Assembly (NCBI GenBank): GCA_021158595.1
Contig: JAGGUF010000079.1
Coordinates: forward strand, 1 to 34,801
Source: a bacterium
Lineage (GTDB): Bacteria; Patescibacteriota; Minisyncoccia; Minisyncoccales; GCA-002788555
DNA length: 34,801 nt
Direction of reading: 5' to 3'
In this document: piece by piece, positions 1,051-32,931 of the stretch
Position numbering within the stretch: position 1 is the stretch's first letter
How the letters are laid out: every line of letters begins with the position of its first letter
Position numbers and translations under genes: made by a program
The notes under the pieces: generated by a model
What the model was told of the DNA's origin: nothing
Databases searched by the model: none
What the model saw: the letters and a program-made list of their open reading frames with translations, nothing else

Positions 1051-1338
1051 TAATAGTTGTAAAGTTTCACCACGTTGTTCACAATTAGGACAAGTTTCTC
1101 TTTAATCTTTTTGTATTTGGCTTTTGCCTTTTCCCTATATTTTTCCCTCCCCCACCTATATCCTCCCCCTCCCTAAGGGAGGAGGAGGATTGAGGAGGAT
1201 CTCCTCAATTTCCTCCTCCTTCCAGAGGGAGGGGGAGGATTAAGGTGGGGATCCCCCAAAATCCTCCCCCTCCCACAGGGAGGGGGAGGATTAAGGAGGG
1301 GGAGGGAATTCCTTATTGGTGAAACTGTACAAATAGTT
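1051..1338. mobile_element. Repeat-family copy 1: variant TIR pair enclosing three tandem G/C hairpin modules
   Basis: TIRs lie at 1051-1072 and 1317-1338 (TTGTAAAGTTTCACCA versus the reverse complement TTGTACAGTTTCACCA). Three modules at 1145-1308 each read CCTCCCCCTCCC-loop-GGGAGGGGGAGGATTAAGG. There is no ORF inside. Confidence 0.6.
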
Positions 1339-4620: not shown

Positions 4621-6336
4621 TCACTTGTTAGGGGGTATTCCCAGGTAACTAAAAAGATATTGAGCAATATCATGAAAAACAGGAGCCAAAGAATCTGAAG
4701 AGAATCTTACACCATGAGGATTATCCAATTTCAAAAAAATTAAAAATTCAGGATCAAAGGCTGGAGCAAAACCCACAAAGGAATGAATGGTTCTGTCAGG
4801 AAAGTACCCTCCTCTTTTAATATCAGGAACCTGGGCAGTTCCTGTTTTACCGGCAATTAAATATCCATCCACTCCTGCCTTCTTTCCATAGCCCCTTTTT
4901 ACCACACTTACCATCATTGCCGTAAGATAAAAGGCAGTTTGGGGAGAGATAACCTGACAAAGAGTCTCTGGCTGAATCTCTTCTTCTGTTTTATCGGGAT
5001 GAATAATTTTTTTCACTACATGGGGTCTTACCATCTTGCCTTGATTAGCAATAGCAGAAAAGGCAGCGACAATTTGAATGGGGGTAACGGCAATTCCCTG
5101 ACCAAAAGAAGCATTGGCATACTCGATTTTCTTTTCTTTTGATTTTGGATACAAAATATTGGAGATACTTCCCGGAACCTCCCCTGCCAGGTCAATCCCT
5201 GTTTTTTTACCAAAACCAAATTTTTTTACATATTCTATAAACTTCTCCCTCCCTAACTTTTCCTCTACAAACACTGCTCCAGTATTTAAAGAAAGTTCAA
5301 GAACCTCAGTCATTGTTTTTTCCCCATGACTTTTAAGATCTGCATTTCTTATAATATGAGAGCCTATTCTAACCTCTCCTTTATCAATATAGGTAGTATC
5401 AGGAGCCACCACTCCTTCCTCTAAAGCACCTGCCATTGTAATAGGTTTAAAAATTGAACCTGGTTCAAAGGGAATAGAAATGGCTGGGTTTTTATAATCT
5501 TCCATCTCAAATTTGGGAAACTCATTAGGATCAAATTTAGGTTTGTTTGAAGGTCCTCTGGAAGCCATTGCCAAGATCTCTCCTGTCTTGGGATCAGAGA
5601 CAATAATGGTCCCTCCATCGGCTCCATATTTTTTAACACTTTCCTCTAACTTCCCCTCAATAAAAAACTGAATATTATAATCTAAGGTTAAGACCAGATT
5701 ATCTCCATCTATAGGATCTTGGATTTTATTAAAAGAGGAAAATATCTCCCTTCCTTTTGCATCTACTACTCCCTCTCGAAACCCATCCTTCCCTCGAAGA
5801 TTATTCTGATAATATTCCTCCAAGCCATACTGTCCCTTGTTCTCTTTGTTACAAAAGCCTACCACATGAGAAGCCATCTCTCTTTGAGGATATTCCCTTT
5901 CAAAGTTCATTTCAAAATGAACCCCTTTGATATTTTTAATCTTCTCTCCTTCTGTTGCTGGAATCTCCTTTAAAAATACCCAGGGATCTTCTTTATTTGA
6001 TACCTTCTCAAAAACCTCTTTCTCATCCATTTCAAGTAGGTTTGCTAAAATCTTTGAGGTGCTTTCAGGATCTTCTATTTCTCTGGTCGCTATGTAAACC
6101 TTCCTTGTGCCTTTATTCTCTGCCAAAGGAATTTGTCCATCTGAGAAAGAAATAGTCCCTCTCTTTGCTAAAAGTTTAGACTTTCTGATATGTTGTGAAT
6201 CAGCCAATTTTTTATACTCATCATGCTTTATTATCTGAATGTAAAATAAGCGACCTACAATAGTCGCTGCTAATACAAAAAACAAAAAAATTAAAAAAGA
6301 AATGCGAAAATTATTAGAACTCATCCTTGAAAGCAT
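4621..6336 (-). CDS. ftsI: Class B penicillin-binding protein (FtsI/PBP2-type transpeptidase)
   Basis: 571 aa with an N-terminal TM anchor. It has SIFK (SxxK), SLN (SxN) and KTGTA (KTG) motifs and sits in mraZ/ftsL context. The start could instead be the second ATG, 12 nt downstream. Confidence 0.9.
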   Translation of the reverse strand: MLSRMSSNNFRISFLIFLFFVLAATIVGRLFYIQIIKHDEYKKLADSQHIRKSKLLAKRGTISFSDGQIPLAENKGTRKVYIATREIEDPESTSKILANLLEMDEKEVFEKVSNKEDPWVFLKEIPATEGEKIKNIKGVHFEMNFEREYPQREMASHVVGFCNKENKGQYGLEEYYQNNLRGKDGFREGVVDAKGREIFSSFNKIQDPIDGDNLVLTLDYNIQFFIEGKLEESVKKYGADGGTIIVSDPKTGEILAMASRGPSNKPKFDPNEFPKFEMEDYKNPAISIPFEPGSIFKPITMAGALEEGVVAPDTTYIDKGEVRIGSHIIRNADLKSHGEKTMTEVLELSLNTGAVFVEEKLGREKFIEYVKKFGFGKKTGIDLAGEVPGSISNILYPKSKEKKIEYANASFGQGIAVTPIQIVAAFSAIANQGKMVRPHVVKKIIHPDKTEEEIQPETLCQVISPQTAFYLTAMMVSVVKRGYGKKAGVDGYLIAGKTGTAQVPDIKRGGYFPDRTIHSFVGFAPAFDPEFLIFLKLDNPHGVRFSSDSLAPVFHDIAQYLFSYLGIPPNK

Positions 6337-6410
6337 CCCCCCTTCCCTCTGGAAAGAGGATTAAGGAGAGGGAGGAAGAATATCAGAGCCTTAAAGTAGT
6401 TGGCAATTAT
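6337..6410 (+). repeat. Repeat-family copy 3: truncated hairpin, linker and right terminal block
   Basis: The sequence is CCCCCCTTCCCTCTGGAAAGAGGATTAAGGAGAGGGAGG, then AAGAATATCAGAGCC, then TTAAAGTAGTTGGCAATTAT. It fills almost the whole ftsL-ftsI spacer and begins at the base after the ftsI ATG. Confidence 0.75.
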
Positions 6411-6413
6411 GTC

Positions 6414-7451: not shown

Positions 7452-7481
7452 CTATTAGGAAAGTTTTGTTAAATGCAATTG

Positions 7482-9959
7482 CTAACTACTCTGGTAAGGA
7501 TCTGAATCTACTTTCACCTTGAAGGTTACAGGATCAATCTCTATTTTGTCTCCTGACTTTATGCTTTCAGAAAGAATAGCCTTGGCAATATTGTTTTCCA
7601 CCTTTTCCTGAATAACCCTTCTCATTTCTCGGGCTCCAAACTGAGGATTAAAACCAAGTTTAGAAATCTTTTCTACTAATTCTGGCTTAATCAAAAATTC
7701 AATATTTTTTTCTAAAAGTTTCTTCTTTAAATCTGAAAGCATAATTTCAGCAATCTTTAGCAAATGTTTTTGGGATAATGGTCTAAAAAGGACCACAGCA
7801 TCAAACCTATTTAAAAACTCAGGTCGAAAAATTCCTCTCCTTAAAATCTCATTTATAAATTCCTCTTTATATTGTTTTAAATTCTTTCCTTCTATTATGG
7901 CTTCCCTTATGAGTTCTGCTCCAGCATTACTGGTTGAAATAATAATTGTATTCCTAAAGTCTACCCTTCTTCCTGCTCCATCAGTTAGATACCCTTCATC
8001 TAAAACCTGTAAGAACAAATCCAAAATTCTGGGATGGGCTTTTTCAATTTCGTCCAACAAGATTAAAGAAAATGGATCTTCTCTTACCTTGGTGGTAAAA
8101 TATCCAGGCTCAGTAGGAGTGCCAATTAATCTTTCAATAGAACTTTGAACCTGATACTCAGACATATCCAATCTTATCATTCTCTTCTCTGAACCAAAAT
8201 AGACCTCTGCCAGGGTCTTAGCCACCTGAGTTTTTCCTACCCCTGTTGGTCCCAAAAATAAAAAGTTACCTATAGTTCTTTCTCTTTTTCTTATCTCTGC
8301 CCGAGCCCGACGGAGAGCATTCGCTACCTCAAAGACTGCCTCCTCTTGGTCTACCACCCTCTGGTGAATAATTTTTTCTAAATTCAAAAGAACCTCTCTT
8401 TCCTTTTCTTCAGCCTCACCTACAGGAATTTCTGTCTTCTCTGAGACCAAACCTTCCACAATTTCAGGAGACACCCTTCCTCCCTTTACCTGACGCAAGG
8501 TGTAAACAGTTACCTCTTGCAAAAGATCAATTGCCTTTTTGGGGAAGGGAGAGGTTTGGATATATCGATCAGAAAGTTCAACGATTTCTTTAATTGCCTT
8601 ATAAGTGAAAAAAATTGGCGCTTTTTTTTCTATTCTCAAAACCTCATCTTCCACTATCTTCAACATTTTATCAACAGAAGGTGGTTTTATTTCAATTTTC
8701 TCAAACTGACCAAGTATCTCAGGTGCTCTTTCAATAGATTGATGGAGTCCTTCATAGGTAGTAGTAGCAATTAATCTAAATTCAGGAATTGAAAGATACT
8801 GAAGAAGAATGGGAGAAATATCTATTTTCCCTACTGCCTTTGCTCCAAACCTTTGACCTACAAAATTGTGAAGTTGTCGAATAACCAAAATAACGTTTCC
8901 TGCTCTTACTGCCTCAGCGAAGATTAACTTTAAAAGCCCCTCAACATTGCCCTGTTCTCTTCCAGTAGAGAGAACAAGAGGCATATCAATTTCAAGAATT
9001 CTCTTATAGTTCAAGGGAGTAACAGTTTTCCCCTGATTGACCATTCTGGCAAAGTTTTTAATCATTTCTTTCTTGCCTACTCCCGACTCACCCACCAAAA
9101 GAGCGCAATTTCTCTCTGGTTTAATCAAGGCATTTTCTAATCTTCTTATTTCTTCTTGATAAAGAGGAGATCTTGCCAAAAAGGCTTTTCTTTCTATTTT
9201 TGTCAAATCAACTGAAAAATTATCCAAATTAATGGTATATCCGGCTGCCCAATCCCTTGCCACACTACCATATCTTAAAAGATTCTCCCTTTCCCAAAAC
9301 CTTTTCTCTCTGGTTTCTTTTTCTATAATTCTTCTTTTCCAATCGCAGACCTCTTTTAACTCCTCCTTTCTGATTTTAAGTAGATCTAAAAGTCTTCTTA
9401 GAAAGGGTTCATTTTCTGCTAAAGAAGGTAACAGATCAAAAATGCTAATCTTTCTTAGGTTTTCTTTTAGAATTGACTTTAGAATCTCCTCCGCTTCTTT
9501 TACATCCTTTTTCGTTCCTCTTATTTTCTTTTTAACCTCCTTTCTAATTTCTGCCCTTGGCAAAGAAAGTCTTTCATATACAAAGGAAAGTTCTTTTACT
9601 CCTAAAAGATAGAAAAGTAAAAGAAGACTGAAGTCTCCCTTTTTTGAAAATGCAAAATCTACTGCCTTTGCTGCTTGAAAATCTAAAAACTCTGCTAAGT
9701 TCTCTGGATTTTTAACCTTTGGGTTTTTTAATTTCTGTTCGAAAAACAAACGATAAAGAAAAAGGATACCCCAAAGAGAAAATGACAGATAGCAAATCCC
9801 CAATGATAGATGGGTATTAAATACTGATATTTTGAGATTTATTAGAGAAATTACAAAAATAAAAAAGAAGATTATCTCCAAGACCCAAATCACTCCTAAA
9901 GGAATAAGTTTTTCCAGTTTTACCGCTTGAATAATCTGAGCGGAGTTTAAATCAAACAT
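7482..9959 (-). CDS. Membrane-anchored two-ring AAA+ Clp/Hsp100-family protein with degenerate D1 ring
   Basis: 825 aa with two N-terminal TM helices. D1 aligns to ClpB, but Walker A is GESGVGKK, Walker B is VIRQLH (instead of FIDELH), and the RRFQ arginine-finger segment is GQFE. D2 is canonical (GPTGVGKT, LLDEIEKAHP, STSN, PEFLNRFD, GAREMRR). There is no M domain and no obvious ClpP-binding loop. Confidence 0.85.
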   Translation of the reverse strand: MFDLNSAQIIQAVKLEKLIPLGVIWVLEIIFFFIFVISLINLKISVFNTHLSLGICYLSFSLWGILFLYRLFFEQKLKNPKVKNPENLAEFLDFQAAKAVDFAFSKKGDFSLLLLFYLLGVKELSFVYERLSLPRAEIRKEVKKKIRGTKKDVKEAEEILKSILKENLRKISIFDLLPSLAENEPFLRRLLDLLKIRKEELKEVCDWKRRIIEKETREKRFWERENLLRYGSVARDWAAGYTINLDNFSVDLTKIERKAFLARSPLYQEEIRRLENALIKPERNCALLVGESGVGKKEMIKNFARMVNQGKTVTPLNYKRILEIDMPLVLSTGREQGNVEGLLKLIFAEAVRAGNVILVIRQLHNFVGQRFGAKAVGKIDISPILLQYLSIPEFRLIATTTYEGLHQSIERAPEILGQFEKIEIKPPSVDKMLKIVEDEVLRIEKKAPIFFTYKAIKEIVELSDRYIQTSPFPKKAIDLLQEVTVYTLRQVKGGRVSPEIVEGLVSEKTEIPVGEAEEKEREVLLNLEKIIHQRVVDQEEAVFEVANALRRARAEIRKRERTIGNFLFLGPTGVGKTQVAKTLAEVYFGSEKRMIRLDMSEYQVQSSIERLIGTPTEPGYFTTKVREDPFSLILLDEIEKAHPRILDLFLQVLDEGYLTDGAGRRVDFRNTIIISTSNAGAELIREAIIEGKNLKQYKEEFINEILRRGIFRPEFLNRFDAVVLFRPLSQKHLLKIAEIMLSDLKKKLLEKNIEFLIKPELVEKISKLGFNPQFGAREMRRVIQEKVENNIAKAILSESIKSGDKIEIDPVTFKVKVDSDPYQSS

Positions 9960-13477: not shown

Positions 13478-13577
13478 CTCTCCCCCACCTATATCCTCCC
13501 CCTCCCTCTGGGAGGGGAAGGATTAAGGTGGGGGAGGGAGAATATCAGAGCCCTATCAAATTGATTAGTAATTATAG
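13478..13577 (+). repeat. Repeat-family copy 4: best-preserved single hairpin module, linker and right terminal block
   Basis: The hairpin is CTCCCCCACC-TATA-TCCTCCCCCTCCC-TCT-GGGAGGGGAAGGA-TTAA-GGTGGGGGAG. It is followed by GGAGAATATCAGAGCC and then CTATCAAATTGATTAGTAATTATA. Confidence 0.8.
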
Positions 13578-13578
13578 A

Positions 13579-13612
13579 AGATGAAAGAGAATTTACATTC
13601 TCTTTCATCTTG
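13579..13612. other. Perfect 15-bp AT-rich hairpin / palindrome
   Basis: The sequence is AAGATGAAAGAGAAT-TTAC-ATTCTCTTTCATCTT. No T-run follows on either strand, so it is not a canonical terminator. Confidence 0.7.
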
Positions 13613-13698: not shown

Positions 13699-13860
13699 GT
13701 GCTGGCCGATATAAGAGAGCAAATAAAAGAGCTAGATCTGGATGTCCGCAAGACCTGGTGGGCACAGAGGCCGGTTCTTGCATGGTATCTAGTTTGCCTT
13801 AGCATAGTGATAGCAATCATTTGGCCTACATGCCTTCTTGAGTATCTTCGAAGAATCTAA
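13699..13860 (+). CDS. Possible small membrane peptide (start codon uncertain)
   Basis: The frame is open over 13636-13860, and the only canonical start is a GTG at 13699 (53 aa). The C-terminal segment PVLAWYLVCLSIVIAIIWPTCLL looks like a TM helix. It lies downstream of the candidate plus-strand promoter and upstream of a hairpin with a T-run. Local G+C reaches 33 of 60 in 13741-13800. AAGGAGG at 13639-13645 has no start codon at a proper spacing. Confidence 0.25.
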   Translation: MLADIREQIKELDLDVRKTWWAQRPVLAWYLVCLSIVIAIIWPTCLLEYLRRI

Positions 13861-18112: not shown

Positions 18113-18225
18113 GAAACTTGTGGAAAATTACTAACCACTTTGGTAACAGTCTAACTCCATAATCTTTCCCCTCCCAAAGGAAGGGAGAAGATATAGGCGG
18201 AAGGACAACCTGTGGAAATATTATT
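18113..18225 (-). repeat. Repeat-family copy 5 (inverted orientation, degenerate core)
   Basis: The terminal block AATTACTAACCACTTTGGTAAC lies at 18126-18147. The hairpin remnant CTTTCCCCTCCC-AAAG-GAAGGGAGAAGATATAGGCGGAAGG follows. The element is flanked by near-identical TGTGGAAAATTA (18120) and TGTGGAAATATTA (18211). Confidence 0.65.
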
Positions 18226-21900: not shown

Positions 21901-22109
21901 AGAAGGTAACTACAAAACAGGGAAAGCCAATGCTCTTTCTGGAAATTGAAGATCTCACAGGAAGAATTGAGGCTTTAATCTTCCCTGACATTCTTGAAGA
22001 AAATGCTCTTTTATTTCAGAATAACAAGATTTTAGAGATAAAAGGAAGGATATCAGACAAAGATGGGGTTCCAAAGATAATTGCGGAAAGGGTAAGAGAA
22101 GTTAAATAA
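18954..22109 (+). CDS. dnaE: DNA polymerase III alpha subunit (DnaE type)
   Basis: It has a PHP domain (FTHLHVHSHYSLLDG), polymerase core motifs (GPGRGSVGGSLVAYLL, PDIDLDF) and a C-terminal OB fold. The start is set at MRFTHLH, because the 19 extra codons in the ORF track overlap rnhB and the promoter. Confidence 0.95.
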   Translation: MRFTHLHVHSHYSLLDGLPKIDELLDYVKKLGMDSAALTDHGALYGAIEFYQKAKKKGIKPIIGEEFYMAYERMDQRRPNIDNKRYHLVLLAKDFTGYQNLVKLTTKAWLDGFYYKPRIDENLLEQHSKGIICLTGCLQGKIPRLILSGKIDEAEKLALRYKDLFGKDNFYLELQYHPNIPEQKKVNEALILLSKKLKIPVVATNDVHYLKKEDAKAQDILMLVNTGANPNDPERLTMISDDFSFRSQEEMISSFRDIPEAIENTQKIVQECNLELQLGKVQLPYFKVPNGKSPDEYLRELCQIGLKKRNLKETPEIRKRLEYELTVIKQTGFASYFLIVADFVNFSKRNGIVVGPGRGSVGGSLVAYLLNITDINPLKYNLLFERFLNPERKAGLPDIDLDFTDTRRDEVINYVAKKYGRDRVSQIITFGTMAARQVIRDVGRALGYNYTYCDRIAKMIPFFSTLNEALEKVEEFRQVYYTDPKARKMIDIGKKLEGVARHASTHACGVVISNTPLTDLIPLQRASKNDQTIVTQYDMYSIEALGLLKMDFLGLKNLTIIEDTLKLIKKFHHIDIDISHLPLNDKETYKLLQQGNTTGVFQLESDGMKRYLKELQPTQFKDIIAMVALYRPGPMELIPEYIARKKGQKKIIYLHPKLKPILKNTYGVMIFQEQLMQVAQKLAGFSLGEADILRKAVGKKIKSLLLQQKEKMIKGMIKNGIAEGTAQKIWNWIIPFARYGFNASHATAYAMIAYQTAYLKAHFPIEFMAVLMNSEQKNIDRLKILLQEAKKMNISVLPPDINESKSKFTIIDDSTIRFGLSAIKNVGSNVVEKIEEERKRRGNYSSIEDFIERIPAEVLNKKSIESLIKAGAFDKLEDRGKLLYNLEKILEFGRRCQQRKMTGDGSLFGKRITFNSLKLEDNPNPLTKREKLLWEKELLGVFVSSHPMDDLQEKIKNTLPISEINSSFTSQKVRIAGTVSKIQKVTTKQGKPMLFLEIEDLTGRIEALIFPDILEENALLFQNNKILEIKGRISDKDGVPKIIAERVREVK

Positions 22110-22213
22110 TTTGTACTGTCCAACCACTTTGATAATAAGCCTTCTGGTTTAATCCTCTTCAGGTGGGGGAGGGAAAATATCAGATTCTTGCCAAAATGAT
22201 CGGCAATTACAAA
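22110..22213 (+). mobile_element. Repeat-family copy 6: compact 104-bp MITE-like copy with both TIRs
   Basis: The left end is TTTGTACTGTCCAACCACTTTGATAA (22110-22135). The right end is TTGCCAAAATGATCGGCAATTACAAA (22188-22213). They match at 18 of 26 positions as inverted repeats. The core retains AATCCTCTTCAGGTGGGGGAGGGAAAATATCAGA. The element fills the dnaE-thrS spacer. Confidence 0.7.
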
Positions 22214-22228
22214 TAATTTAAGGTTTTT

Positions 22229-29613: not shown

Positions 29614-30603
29614 TCAAAGAGGATGTCTTTTTATCTTTACTCTTCCAAACCTCCAGATAGATTCATTCCTATTTAAAAGCCCATTCTTTGCGCCGAATCT
29701 CTGAAGACAAGAAACAGCATTAGCAGAACCAAACTGAATAGCGTATTCAATATCATTAGGTCTTTTAATAAGGCCAGTAACAAAACCTGAACCAAAGGCA
29801 TCCCCACAACCCGTCCGATCTACTACTTTTTTTGCTTTTAATACTCCACTCTCATACAAATAATTTCCATCTGAAACCACCACACCCAAAGGACCCTTTG
29901 TCATCACTACAATCCCTTCAACCCACTCATCCAGGGTTTTAAAGATTTCTCTTTCTTTATGATAGGGCAATCTTGTGGCCAAGGAAGCCTCCTCTTGATT
30001 TAAAATTAAGACATCAATAAAATTAAGCAGTCTTTTTAGTCTCTTTTGCGGAAGAGAAAGTTGGGAGTTGCCTGGATTTACTGCTATTTTTATATGGTTT
30101 TTCCGGGCAAACCTCAAAATAGGTTCAAAGATTTTTACCAACCTTCCTGAAAGGGGGGCAAGATAAAACCACTTCGCCTTAAGTTTCTCCCAAGGAATGC
30201 TTTTCTTTTGTAAATCTTCTGATGCTCCCCGGTAGGCAAGTACAGTCCGTTCATTTGGGCTGGAAAGAATCACTGAATAATTGGTGTGATGTCTTTTACT
30301 AAAAAAAAGAAAATCAGTAGAAATTCCCTTTTCTTTCAGTTGTTCTTTGATTTGTCTTCCTATAATATCCTCTCCAACCATTCCACAATAAGCCACCTTA
30401 AATCCCTGGTTTTTAAAGGTAAAAGCAGTATTTGTTCCTCCGCCTCCACTTAAAAACTCTATTTCTTCCACCGGAATTTTTGAACCCAGGGAGAGACAAA
30501 GTCCTTTTCCAGTAAAAAATTTCTTTTCCTTTCTAACCTTAAAACTTCTGCTTTTCAAAAAAACATCCTGGGTAGCCGAACCAAAGGTGATAATATCAAA
30601 CAT
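29614..30603 (-). CDS. PfkB/ribokinase-family carbohydrate kinase
   Basis: It has the GGGGTNTA motif and the catalytic-loop motif DRTGCGDAFGSGF. The start is set at the ATG of MFDIITFGSA, because the 18 extra codons in the ORF track (GTG at 30657) run into the repeat element. The stop (TGA) is separated by 1 nt from the pgk ATG. Confidence 0.85.
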   Translation of the reverse strand: MFDIITFGSATQDVFLKSRSFKVRKEKKFFTGKGLCLSLGSKIPVEEIEFLSGGGGTNTAFTFKNQGFKVAYCGMVGEDIIGRQIKEQLKEKGISTDFLFFSKRHHTNYSVILSSPNERTVLAYRGASEDLQKKSIPWEKLKAKWFYLAPLSGRLVKIFEPILRFARKNHIKIAVNPGNSQLSLPQKRLKRLLNFIDVLILNQEEASLATRLPYHKEREIFKTLDEWVEGIVVMTKGPLGVVVSDGNYLYESGVLKAKKVVDRTGCGDAFGSGFVTGLIKRPNDIEYAIQFGSANAVSCLQRFGAKNGLLNRNESIWRFGRVKIKRHPL

Positions 30604-30869
30604 ATAATTGCTAACCAATTTGGTAACGGTTTGATTGTTATTATCTCCCTCCCCCACCTATATCCTTCCTCTCCCAGAGGGAGAGGGAGGAGAAGGAGGA
30701 AGCCCCGCCTACATCCTCTCAGATCCTCGCCTGTATCCTCCCCCTCCCAAAGAGAGGGGGGAGGAGTAAGGAGGGGATTCCCCAAAATCCTCCCCCTCCC
30801 ACAGGGAGGGGAGGATTAAGGAGGGGGAGGGTCTATTTTTTATTTCGTTACGGAATTGATTGGATAGTA
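30603..30869 (-). mobile_element. Repeat-family copy 7: TIR-flanked element with about three hairpin modules
   Basis: ATAATTGCTAACCAATTTGGTAACG (30603-30628) and CGTTACGGAATTGATTGGATAGTA (30846-30869) are inverted repeats matching at 16 of 24 positions. The core at 30644-30831 holds three poly-C/poly-G hairpins. It fills the ligA-pfkB spacer. Confidence 0.7.
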
Positions 30870-30880
30870 GATCAAATATA

Positions 30881-32899: not shown

Positions 32900-32931
32900 A
32901 GTTTCACGGTTCACGCTTCACGCGAAGTGAG

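Follow-up and report, generated by a model that had tools for sequence, protein, structure and literature searches.

A probable new family of miniature inverted-repeat elements sharing its ends with an IS481-like insertion sequence

Repeat loci in a compact housekeeping region

Here we examine short repeat elements with GC-rich hairpins in a 34,801-nt stretch of bacterial DNA (contig JAGGUF010000079.1 of assembly GCA_021158595.1, positions 1 to 34,801), hereafter the window. With a G+C content of 36%, the window is tightly packed with housekeeping genes: mraZ, genes for a penicillin-binding protein (PBP) and a ClpB-like ATPase, mreB, genes for ProRS and PPDK, rpsP, rnc, nusB and rpmF, and further rnhB, dnaE, thrS, miaB, miaA, pgk, ligA and three tRNA genes. 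Approximately 3% of this region consists of the repeat elements. A first-pass annotation had reported seven repeat loci, and all of them are present and lie between open reading frames (ORFs) or tRNA genes; a repeat finder brought the number to eight with a solitary terminal block at 7474-7511. Allowing up to three mismatches, the inner hairpin pattern ATCCTCCCCCTCCCNNNGGGAGG is matched 14 times in the window versus 0 times in 100 shuffles, and the terminal block TAATTGCCAACCACTTTGGTAA, at the same tolerance, three times, again with none in the shuffles. Copies range from 38 to 274 nt, and, as already annotated, no copy in the window carries an ORF of its own; none holds a transposase gene.

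The loci are numbered 1 to 7 in the coordinate order of the annotated seven, with 7474-7511 as locus 8, and the boundaries of loci 1 to 7 were refined. [quoted passage not shown] The features are as follows, none being assigned to a strand (TIR, terminal inverted repeat; TSD, target-site duplication).

1058-1331: locus 1, probable MITE of family 2, 274 nt, three nested poly-C/poly-G hairpin modules between the TIRs TGTAAAGTTTCACCAC... and ...GGTGAAACTGTACA; flanked by the 6-bp direct repeat AATAGT at 1052-1057 and 1332-1337.
2231-2324: locus 2, one-ended family 1, End A and one decayed hairpin module; End A terminus TTTAATTGCC at 2324.
6329-6413: locus 3, one-ended family 1, End A CATAATTGCC with its terminus at 6411; module internally deleted.
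7474-7511: locus 8, lone End A remnant TGCAATTGCTAACTACTCTGGTAAGGATCTGAATCTAC.
13478-13579: locus 4, one-ended family 1, intact hairpin module (-55 kcal/mol) and degenerate End A.
18123-18207: locus 5, family 1, End A GAAAATTACTAACCACTTTGGTAAC, decayed module, ending ...GGACA; flanked by ACTTGTG at 18116-18122 and ACCTGTG at 18208-18214.
22112-22211: locus 6, two-ended probable MITE of family 1, 100 nt, End B, hairpin remnant and End A; perfect 7-bp TSD AATAATT at 22105-22111 and 22212-22218, containing the DnaE stop codon.
30603-30871: locus 7, two-ended probable MITE of family 1, 269 nt, running from End A through hairpin modules to End B; TSD TCAAACA/TCAAATA (one mismatch) at 30596-30602 and 30872-30878.

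Loci 1, 6 and 7 have both ends, and loci 2, 3, 4, 5 and 8 a single one, so that four of the original seven copies keep one end, as the annotation had counted. What had been described as a terminal block is a transposon TIR of 26-30 nt, 5'-TGTA(A/C)T..C.AA.CAATT.GGTAACG, but its true terminus, TGTA, lies a few bases further out; we place the terminus there because the base before TGTA varies among copies. End A, TGTAATTGCTAACCAATTTGGTAACGGTTTGATTGTTATTAT (beginning TGTAATTGC...), continues into the hairpins and differs from End B, TGTACTATCCAATCAATTCGGTAACGAAATGAAAAAATAG... (TGTACTATCC). The annotated linker GAATATCAGAGCC is likewise present, but not as a separate part, being the subterminal stretch of End A in the subfamily of the window.

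In most window copies the TIR carries a mutation in its terminal TG. Where TGTA is expected, the termini read TTTA at 2324, CATA at 6411, TATA at 13579, GAAA at 18123, TGCA at 7474, TATA at 30603 and TCTA at 30871; an unaltered TGTA is seen at loci 1 and 6, as well as in a polymorphic copy of the related contig L148. The mutated termini may reflect immobilisation of old copies. The far end of locus 5, ...GGCGGAAGGACA, closes in ACA, and this locus has only one recognisable TIR despite its 7-bp flanking repeats. On the TIR-less side of the one-ended copies, no conserved sequence was found beyond orthologous relatives.

Target duplications, empty sites and a cognate transposase

Beyond the window, a scan of species-representative genomes recovered the hairpin from many low-GC metagenome-assembled genomes (MAGs), in several of them with the same terminal block adjoining it. 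A degenerate 26-mer covering both ends retrieved 75 metagenome contigs, which with two loci from the genome scan gave 77 loci and 89 exact ends. The viral contigs scanned for TIR and module yielded 0 matches, hence no sign of phage carriage. Three types of interior lie between End A and End B: hairpin modules (most commonly in elements of ~172 nt with one module, longer with two), an AT-rich, hairpin-less filling in elements of 239-394 nt, and an ORF in elements of 1174-1181 nt.

Locating the ends with a profile hidden Markov model and then pairing them yielded 42 non-redundant two-ended elements from metagenomes. Directly outside TGTA...TACA, 24 of the 42 are bordered by a 7-bp TSD, perfect in 14 and with one mismatch in 10, versus 0 perfect and 2 one-mismatch cases in 126 controls for which the right flank was moved by 12-30 nt. 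Among the 24 duplicated heptamers, 22 have T at position 3, 23 have A or T at position 4 and all 24 have A at position 5; the insertion target is NN-TWA-NN. A 5-bp TSD with TTGTA termini was also considered and dropped, as the base before TGTA is unconserved and the 7-bp model fits the empty sites.

Such empty sites were found in relatives of the window, comprising contigs 93-97% identical to it and the more diverged L155 and L156. At locus 7, L148, L150 and L151 (93-94% identical) read ATATCAAACATATTAATGGG, with one copy of the heptamer, and at locus 5, L153 (95-97% identical) reads GGAAACTTATGGAAATATT; in L155 the spacer of locus 5 measures only 44 nt. The element at locus 3, present in the window and in L154, is absent from L155 and L156, in which AAGGATG of the PBP gene comes immediately after the DivIC-like stop codon. 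Moreover, L148 and L151 possess a compact 127-nt copy, composed of End A, a linker of the window type, a single module and End B, at a place that is occupied in the window by 31 unrelated bases (32901-32931). At locus 6, L150, L152 and L153 share a structural variant in which End B and two modules are kept and End A is lost. Together, the insertion polymorphism and the locus 6 variant indicate that the family has been active since these strains diverged and that it rearranges internally. The 31 bases of the window, GTTTCACGGTTCACGCTTCACGCGAAGTGAG, comprise TTCACG repeats and a small hairpin, and correspond neither to a clean empty site nor to a recognisable footprint.

The same comparison bears on whether the loci are artefacts of assembly or binning, for example chimeric joins at low-complexity G/C runs. 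Contigs do often end inside modules, and 6 of 10 same-strain contigs in JGI, ENA and Logan assemblies stop inside locus 1, as a multicopy repeat does to an assembler. However, independent JGI, ENA and Logan assemblies agree on the ends and flanks of locus 1 and on the spacer length of locus 2, other loci recur in NCBI, ENA and JGI contigs of relatives, and the junctions display clean TSDs and matching empty sites. We give an artefactual origin next to no chance.

End A and End B also flank an IS of ~1.2 kb with one rve-type DDE transposase of 364-366 aa. A transposase ORF, of 364-380 aa or frameshifted, lies between the two ends in L102, L132, L158, L160, L161 and L163; it begins ~70-100 nt inside End A, and its C-terminus (..NPFVTELVG) is encoded by End B. 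The Pfam domains rve, rve_2 and rve_3 are recognised in the protein, and the best NCBIfam match of a natural 366-aa form, P0047, is IS481 (NF033577, 188.1 bits, E 2.3e-55), followed by IS3 at 70 bits; across the queries, one of them a composite of two contigs, NF033577 scored 185-188 bits with E about 1e-55, and the natural proteins led to the same outcome. In a tblastn search against plasmids, 7 of the 8 top records are annotated, all 7 as IS481 family transposase, at 24-27% identity, and a 46%-identical homologue from a Patescibacteria MAG is likewise named IS481 family transposase at NCBI. At E<=1e-20, 663 homologues are present in the protein database, many of them on contigs of ~1.2 kb, as a multicopy IS would give. 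An intact copy of the IS (L158, L159) occurs in JGI 3300016457 and ENA ERZ23499525, both of which also hold contigs encoding a window-identical protein, and the IS variants L161 and L163 bear the TIR signature CCACTTTGG, the mark of the window subfamily. Near weak TIR matches in the MAG AUK069 (L014, L056, L062), a search for a transposase returned only housekeeping genes.

One near-full-length IS (L102:3897-5070) has its transposase in two frames, split at an A-run (..LLKK in one frame, HKVV.. in the next), unlike L115, L132 and L158, where the transposase is unbroken. An error of sequencing or assembly, a pseudogene or a slippery site could each account for this frame split.

The annotation had read the loci as MITE-like and non-autonomous, and had named TSDs, empty orthologous spacers and a transposase gene flanked by the elements' own termini as the observations to look for. 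All three exist, the last in metagenome contigs, and with the shared termini they support that reading. In the mechanism that we propose, an IS481-like transposase of the P0047 type would mobilise the MITEs in trans, binding the 26-30-bp ends, cutting at the TGT...ACA termini and inserting the element into NN-TWA-NN targets with a 7-bp duplication. As TAA stop codons match the TWA target and gene junctions tolerate insertion, copies would gather exactly at gene ends. The interior, foreign to the IS, consists of one to three tandem 61-nt GC-rich nested hairpin modules; recombination or replication slippage between these near-identical palindromes would alter the module number and remove ends, presumably giving rise to the one-ended copies.

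Several observations weigh against this interpretation. At 188 bits, the transposase scores under the curated NCBIfam cutoff for IS481 of 224 bits. No autonomous copy lies within the window, and co-occurrence of the IS with the window is at the level of samples only. Furthermore, several full-length IS copies (L102, L158, L161) lack matching flanks, locus 3 has no recognisable TSD, locus 5 has flanking repeats without a recognisable End B, and four or five window copies have one recognisable end only. Finally, the module also resides in other repeat families that lack these TIRs.

The hairpin module, the second family and other carriers

RNA folding confirmed the nested hairpin that had been annotated for the intact module. 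With a length of ~61 nt, it has a predicted minimum free energy of -55.1 kcal/mol (z -6.5), and of -54.8 kcal/mol (z -5.8) when the other strand is folded; the entire locus 1 folds at -161.6 kcal/mol (z -11). At loci 2, 3 and 5 the hairpins have decayed, with z-scores of -2.3, -0.6 and -1.9, respectively, which fits selfish elements drifting after insertion. In a set of 38 well-preserved modules, the inner stem of 13 bp shows essentially no variation, and in the outer stem the same non-complementary positions recur, at 10/52, 14/48 and 15/47, as A.A or T.T depending on the strand read. The set was however picked by a pattern permitting at most two mismatches per arm, an ascertainment bias, and since the modules were thus selected by similarity, stem conservation and pair statistics are not readable as selection.

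Consensus terminator and promoter scans of the window gave counts within the shuffled expectation and did not flag the modules; promoter-like TTGCCA...GATATT matches inside End A were no better than chance and were discarded. At the gathering threshold, Rfam identified three tRNAs only in the window, and permissive Rfam scans produced only far sub-threshold matches, for the most part with unspecific long-hairpin models, eukaryotic miRNA precursors among them. That the family was not recognised by the first-pass annotation still stands, with no Rfam match and no published description found in the literature searched.

These data also permit weighing a different origin, in which the loci are structural punctuation maintained by the host, similar to REP/BIME (repetitive extragenic palindromes and bacterial interspersed mosaic elements) or SPRITE, the hairpins terminating or stabilising transcripts or binding a host factor and the flanking blocks being incidental. 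The extreme stability of the hairpins, -55 kcal/mol per module, would suit such a role, as would the position of every copy between genes, often within operons. In relatives, a G-rich, Shine-Dalgarno-like arm is located 8 nt upstream of the ThrRS start codon, a T-run derived from End B-proximal sequence follows the last module of locus 7, and known MITEs (Correia, ERIC, SPRITE) affect transcripts (PMC10969869). However, relatives with 93-97% identity to the window have orthologous spacers entirely free of the elements, with the genes intact, three window hairpins have decayed to near-background stability, and the terminator and promoter scans gave nothing above shuffled expectation. Orientation relative to transcription is mixed (3 versus 4), the window has neither a GTAG-type REP signature nor a Y1 (RAYT) transposase, and TIRs, TSDs and a cognate transposase account for the distribution without a host function. 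Punctuation, which the annotation had held as its fallback, is hence not supported as the origin, TIRs, TSDs and a DDE transposase being found instead, and we regard it as highly unlikely.

Locus 1 stands apart. Its TIR was rightly described before as a related variant, but the locus represents a distinct second family. Its ends, TGTAAAGTTTCACCACGTTGTT.ACAATTAGGAC / TGTACAGTTTCACCA..., also start with TGTA, and the same TIR type recurs in at least eight other loci (L039, L052, L061, L073, L077, L081, L083 and L155); a partner IS for this family was not found. Families 1 and 2 share one hairpin module. In L052:6194-6230 (Omnitrophica bacterium 4484_213), a family-2 element starts right after position 26 of a family-1 End B, the junction reading ..GGTAAC followed by TGTAAAGTCCCACCAC.., which indicates a nested insertion or a recombination between the two families.

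The module has further carriers. In the MAG AUK069 (JAGGUH01; 27-30% GC), it is found within long AT-rich arrays of AAATTCAAAATG... and TTCGAAATTCGGATTTCG... without an IS481-type TIR (L012-L014, L022, L023, L027, L029, L032, L034, L048 and others), and many of these contigs stop exactly in the module. A third type of flank beside the module is TTGAATGCAAAATAAAAGTTGACAGC. Moreover, a conserved flank with a TTGACA hexamer, TTGAATGCAAAATAAAAGTTGACAGCTAAT, abuts the module in L028, L030, L038 and L049, which derive from two MAGs, one labelled Saccharibacteria and the other unclassified; this flank may mark the end of a further carrier element. In L024:1045-1075 (JAJOKZ010000053.1, a Paceibacterota MAG), the module is in frame within an unbroken 522-aa LeuRS-like ORF (..THFTPSHPPPPKGRGRIKEGEDYF..), which has a second, decayed copy of the module near its N-terminus (PPLPPKSSPSQKEGEDKGRGG).

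As the module is found without the TIRs of family 1, these do not explain the spread or the sequence conservation of the hairpin. A further alternative is therefore that the 61-nt hairpin cassette is the primary entity, spreading or selected separately and captured by, or inserting into, several transposons and arrays. The same module, with its invariant inner 13-bp stem, indeed occurs with at least three other flanks (the family-2 TIR, the AAATTCAAAATG arrays of AUK069 and TTGAATGCAAAATAAAAGTTGACAGC) and within the LeuRS-like ORF, the outer-stem mismatches recur, and, as the same IS also has derivatives devoid of the hairpin, the module is dispensable for mobilisation. On the other hand, the apparent conservation is biased by the limit of two mismatches per arm, recent common descent accounts for the conserved mismatches just as well, the module showed no TSD or boundary of its own, and neither module nor TIR is present in the viral contigs scanned. 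Recombination between palindromes of co-resident repeats can, moreover, move modules between families with no need for mobility of their own. A cassette-first origin thus appears most improbable to us, and module exchange between the palindromes of co-resident repeats is the simplest explanation, which would also yield one-ended copies.

A more far-reaching proposal, unlikely as we judge it, is that the 61-nt hairpin leads an independent existence as a cassette in Patescibacteria with reduced genomes and in neighbouring uncultured lineages of hydrothermal and anoxic sediments, sustained by selection or a dedicated recognition factor rather than travelling as passive cargo. It draws on the occurrence of the module in at least four unrelated repeat backbones, on in-frame tolerance in essential genes and on the fixed non-complementary positions. 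Were it true, the hairpin might punctuate transcripts as a thermostable RNA or DNA structure, act as a G-quadruplex/i-motif switch or provide the site of an unknown recombinase.

Gene ends, hosts and relation to known elements

Returning to the very probable family of IS481-like MITEs, several window genes have ends that coincide with the elements. The TAA stop codon of an S41 peptidase gene (2320-2322) falls within the TIR (End A) of locus 2, a locus common to the window and L154, in which the module is more intact. Likewise, the last eight residues of the ClpB-like protein (DSDPYQSS) and its stop codon are encoded by End A of locus 8; in L154 and L155 the protein ends ...SFDIKVRN before the stop, and a different MITE copy occupies that spacer. 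Locus 7 parts ligA from a pfkB-family kinase gene, the two being 1 nt apart in relatives, and places the kinase start codon at its End A junction, where the ATG is rebuilt from the terminal A of the element and the duplicated TGTTTGA. An ATG at 6336 lies inside the locus 3 element, and the native start of the PBP gene is the ATG at 6324-6322. A 347-aa GTG-start ORF and the 571-aa PBP ORF are therefore over-extended into the elements. Copies could affect transcripts through their stable stem-loops, or through the stop codons, start codons and Shine-Dalgarno-like sequences that they supply.

The spacer that holds locus 4, between the GNAT and PPDK genes, measures 535 nt in the window versus 120 nt in L153. 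Within it, at 13699-13860 on the forward strand, lies an ORF of 53 aa that starts with GTG and includes a hydrophobic stretch (MLADIREQIKELDLDVRKTWWAQRPVLAWYLVCLSIVIAIIWPTCLLEYLRRI), and the 120-nt spacer of L153 retains just the start of this region.

Regarding the host, the nearest named homologues of the window ThrRS, at 71-74% identity, belong to Parcubacteria/Patescibacteria. Many of the MAGs with module or TIR are labelled Saccharibacteria, Paceibacterota, Parcubacteria or Uhrbacteria, and two labelled Omnitrophica/Omnitrophota carry both families, all of these being bin labels. An initial reading of the host as Omnitrophota, prompted by the latter two MAGs, was given up in view of the ThrRS neighbours. 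By record names, the samples include Auka/Pescadero hydrothermal sediments.

Among known systems, the IS481 family resembles the partner IS in its single rve-type DDE transposase, for which IS481 is the best profile match, and in having one ORF, short TIRs and a short TSD, the termini here being TGTA...TACA and so starting with TGT. TSDs in the IS481 family range from 4 to 15 bp, and IS481 targets NCTAGN; the 7-bp TSD is inside this range, and the target has a similarly short palindromic core. Unlike that family as curated, the transposase falls below the cutoff and is distant from the annotated plasmid IS481 transposases (24-27% identity), the target is the 7-bp NN-TWA-NN, and the window elements are non-autonomous with a foreign GC-rich hairpin core.

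REP/BIME are likewise dense intergenic palindromes in operon spacers, often clustered and in alternating orientation. REPs are palindromes of 20-40 nt with a conserved 5' GTAG-type tetranucleotide, without TIRs or TSDs, and are tied to a Y1 (IS200/IS605-like) RAYT gene; in contrast, the elements described here have TIRs, 7-bp TSDs and a DDE transposase, their module has no GTAG head, and the window contains no RAYT gene.

Closer in architecture are the Correia elements (CREE) of Neisseria and the ERIC/IRU of enterobacteria, multicopy intergenic MITEs of 100-300 nt with ~26-bp TIRs and TSDs, which are strain-polymorphic and form long hairpins once transcribed. Correia elements duplicate TA, and we know of no cognate transposase identified for them. 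Neither group has sequence similarity to the window elements, in which, unlike in Correia and ERIC, the hairpin is an internal modular cassette rather than the product of the two TIRs pairing, and for which a cognate IS can be identified. Correia and ERIC can supply regulatory signals or alter gene ends (PMC10969869). By analogy, the hairpins of the present family could conceivably terminate or stabilise transcripts, or expose them to RNase III, as in Correia and ERIC (PMC10969869).

Rickettsia palindromic elements (RPE) are unrelated in sequence, and, different from RPE, the window copies are intergenic or at gene ends. For RPE, too, no transposase partner has to our knowledge been identified. 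The two nevertheless resemble each other in that the module is in frame within the LeuRS-like ORF and the ClpB-like protein takes its C-terminus from a TIR remnant. RPE can sit in frame within protein-coding genes (PMC10969869).

The elements make up a new family of a well-known kind and are not conceptually new for MITE biology. Genomes of the Candidate Phyla Radiation (CPR)/Patescibacteria are considered streamlined, with little mobile DNA, and here MITEs, as we read them, amount to ~3% of a housekeeping region in the genome of an uncultured, probably CPR/Patescibacteria, bacterium. They have reshaped gene ends, providing stop codons for the S41 peptidase and ClpB-like genes, splitting the ligase-kinase pair and, in relatives, contributing the Shine-Dalgarno-like arm before ThrRS. 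We consider the family of moderate interest, for its density in a probably streamlined CPR genome, for its clear target rule, and for the promiscuity of its GC-rich cassette across repeat families and a LeuRS-like gene. Metagenome contigs break at the elements, a practical nuisance, and a model of the family would aid assembly, binning and strain-typing. Moreover, with an NN-TWA-NN target and defined ends, the elements constitute a ready, testable substrate for an IS481-like transposase system.

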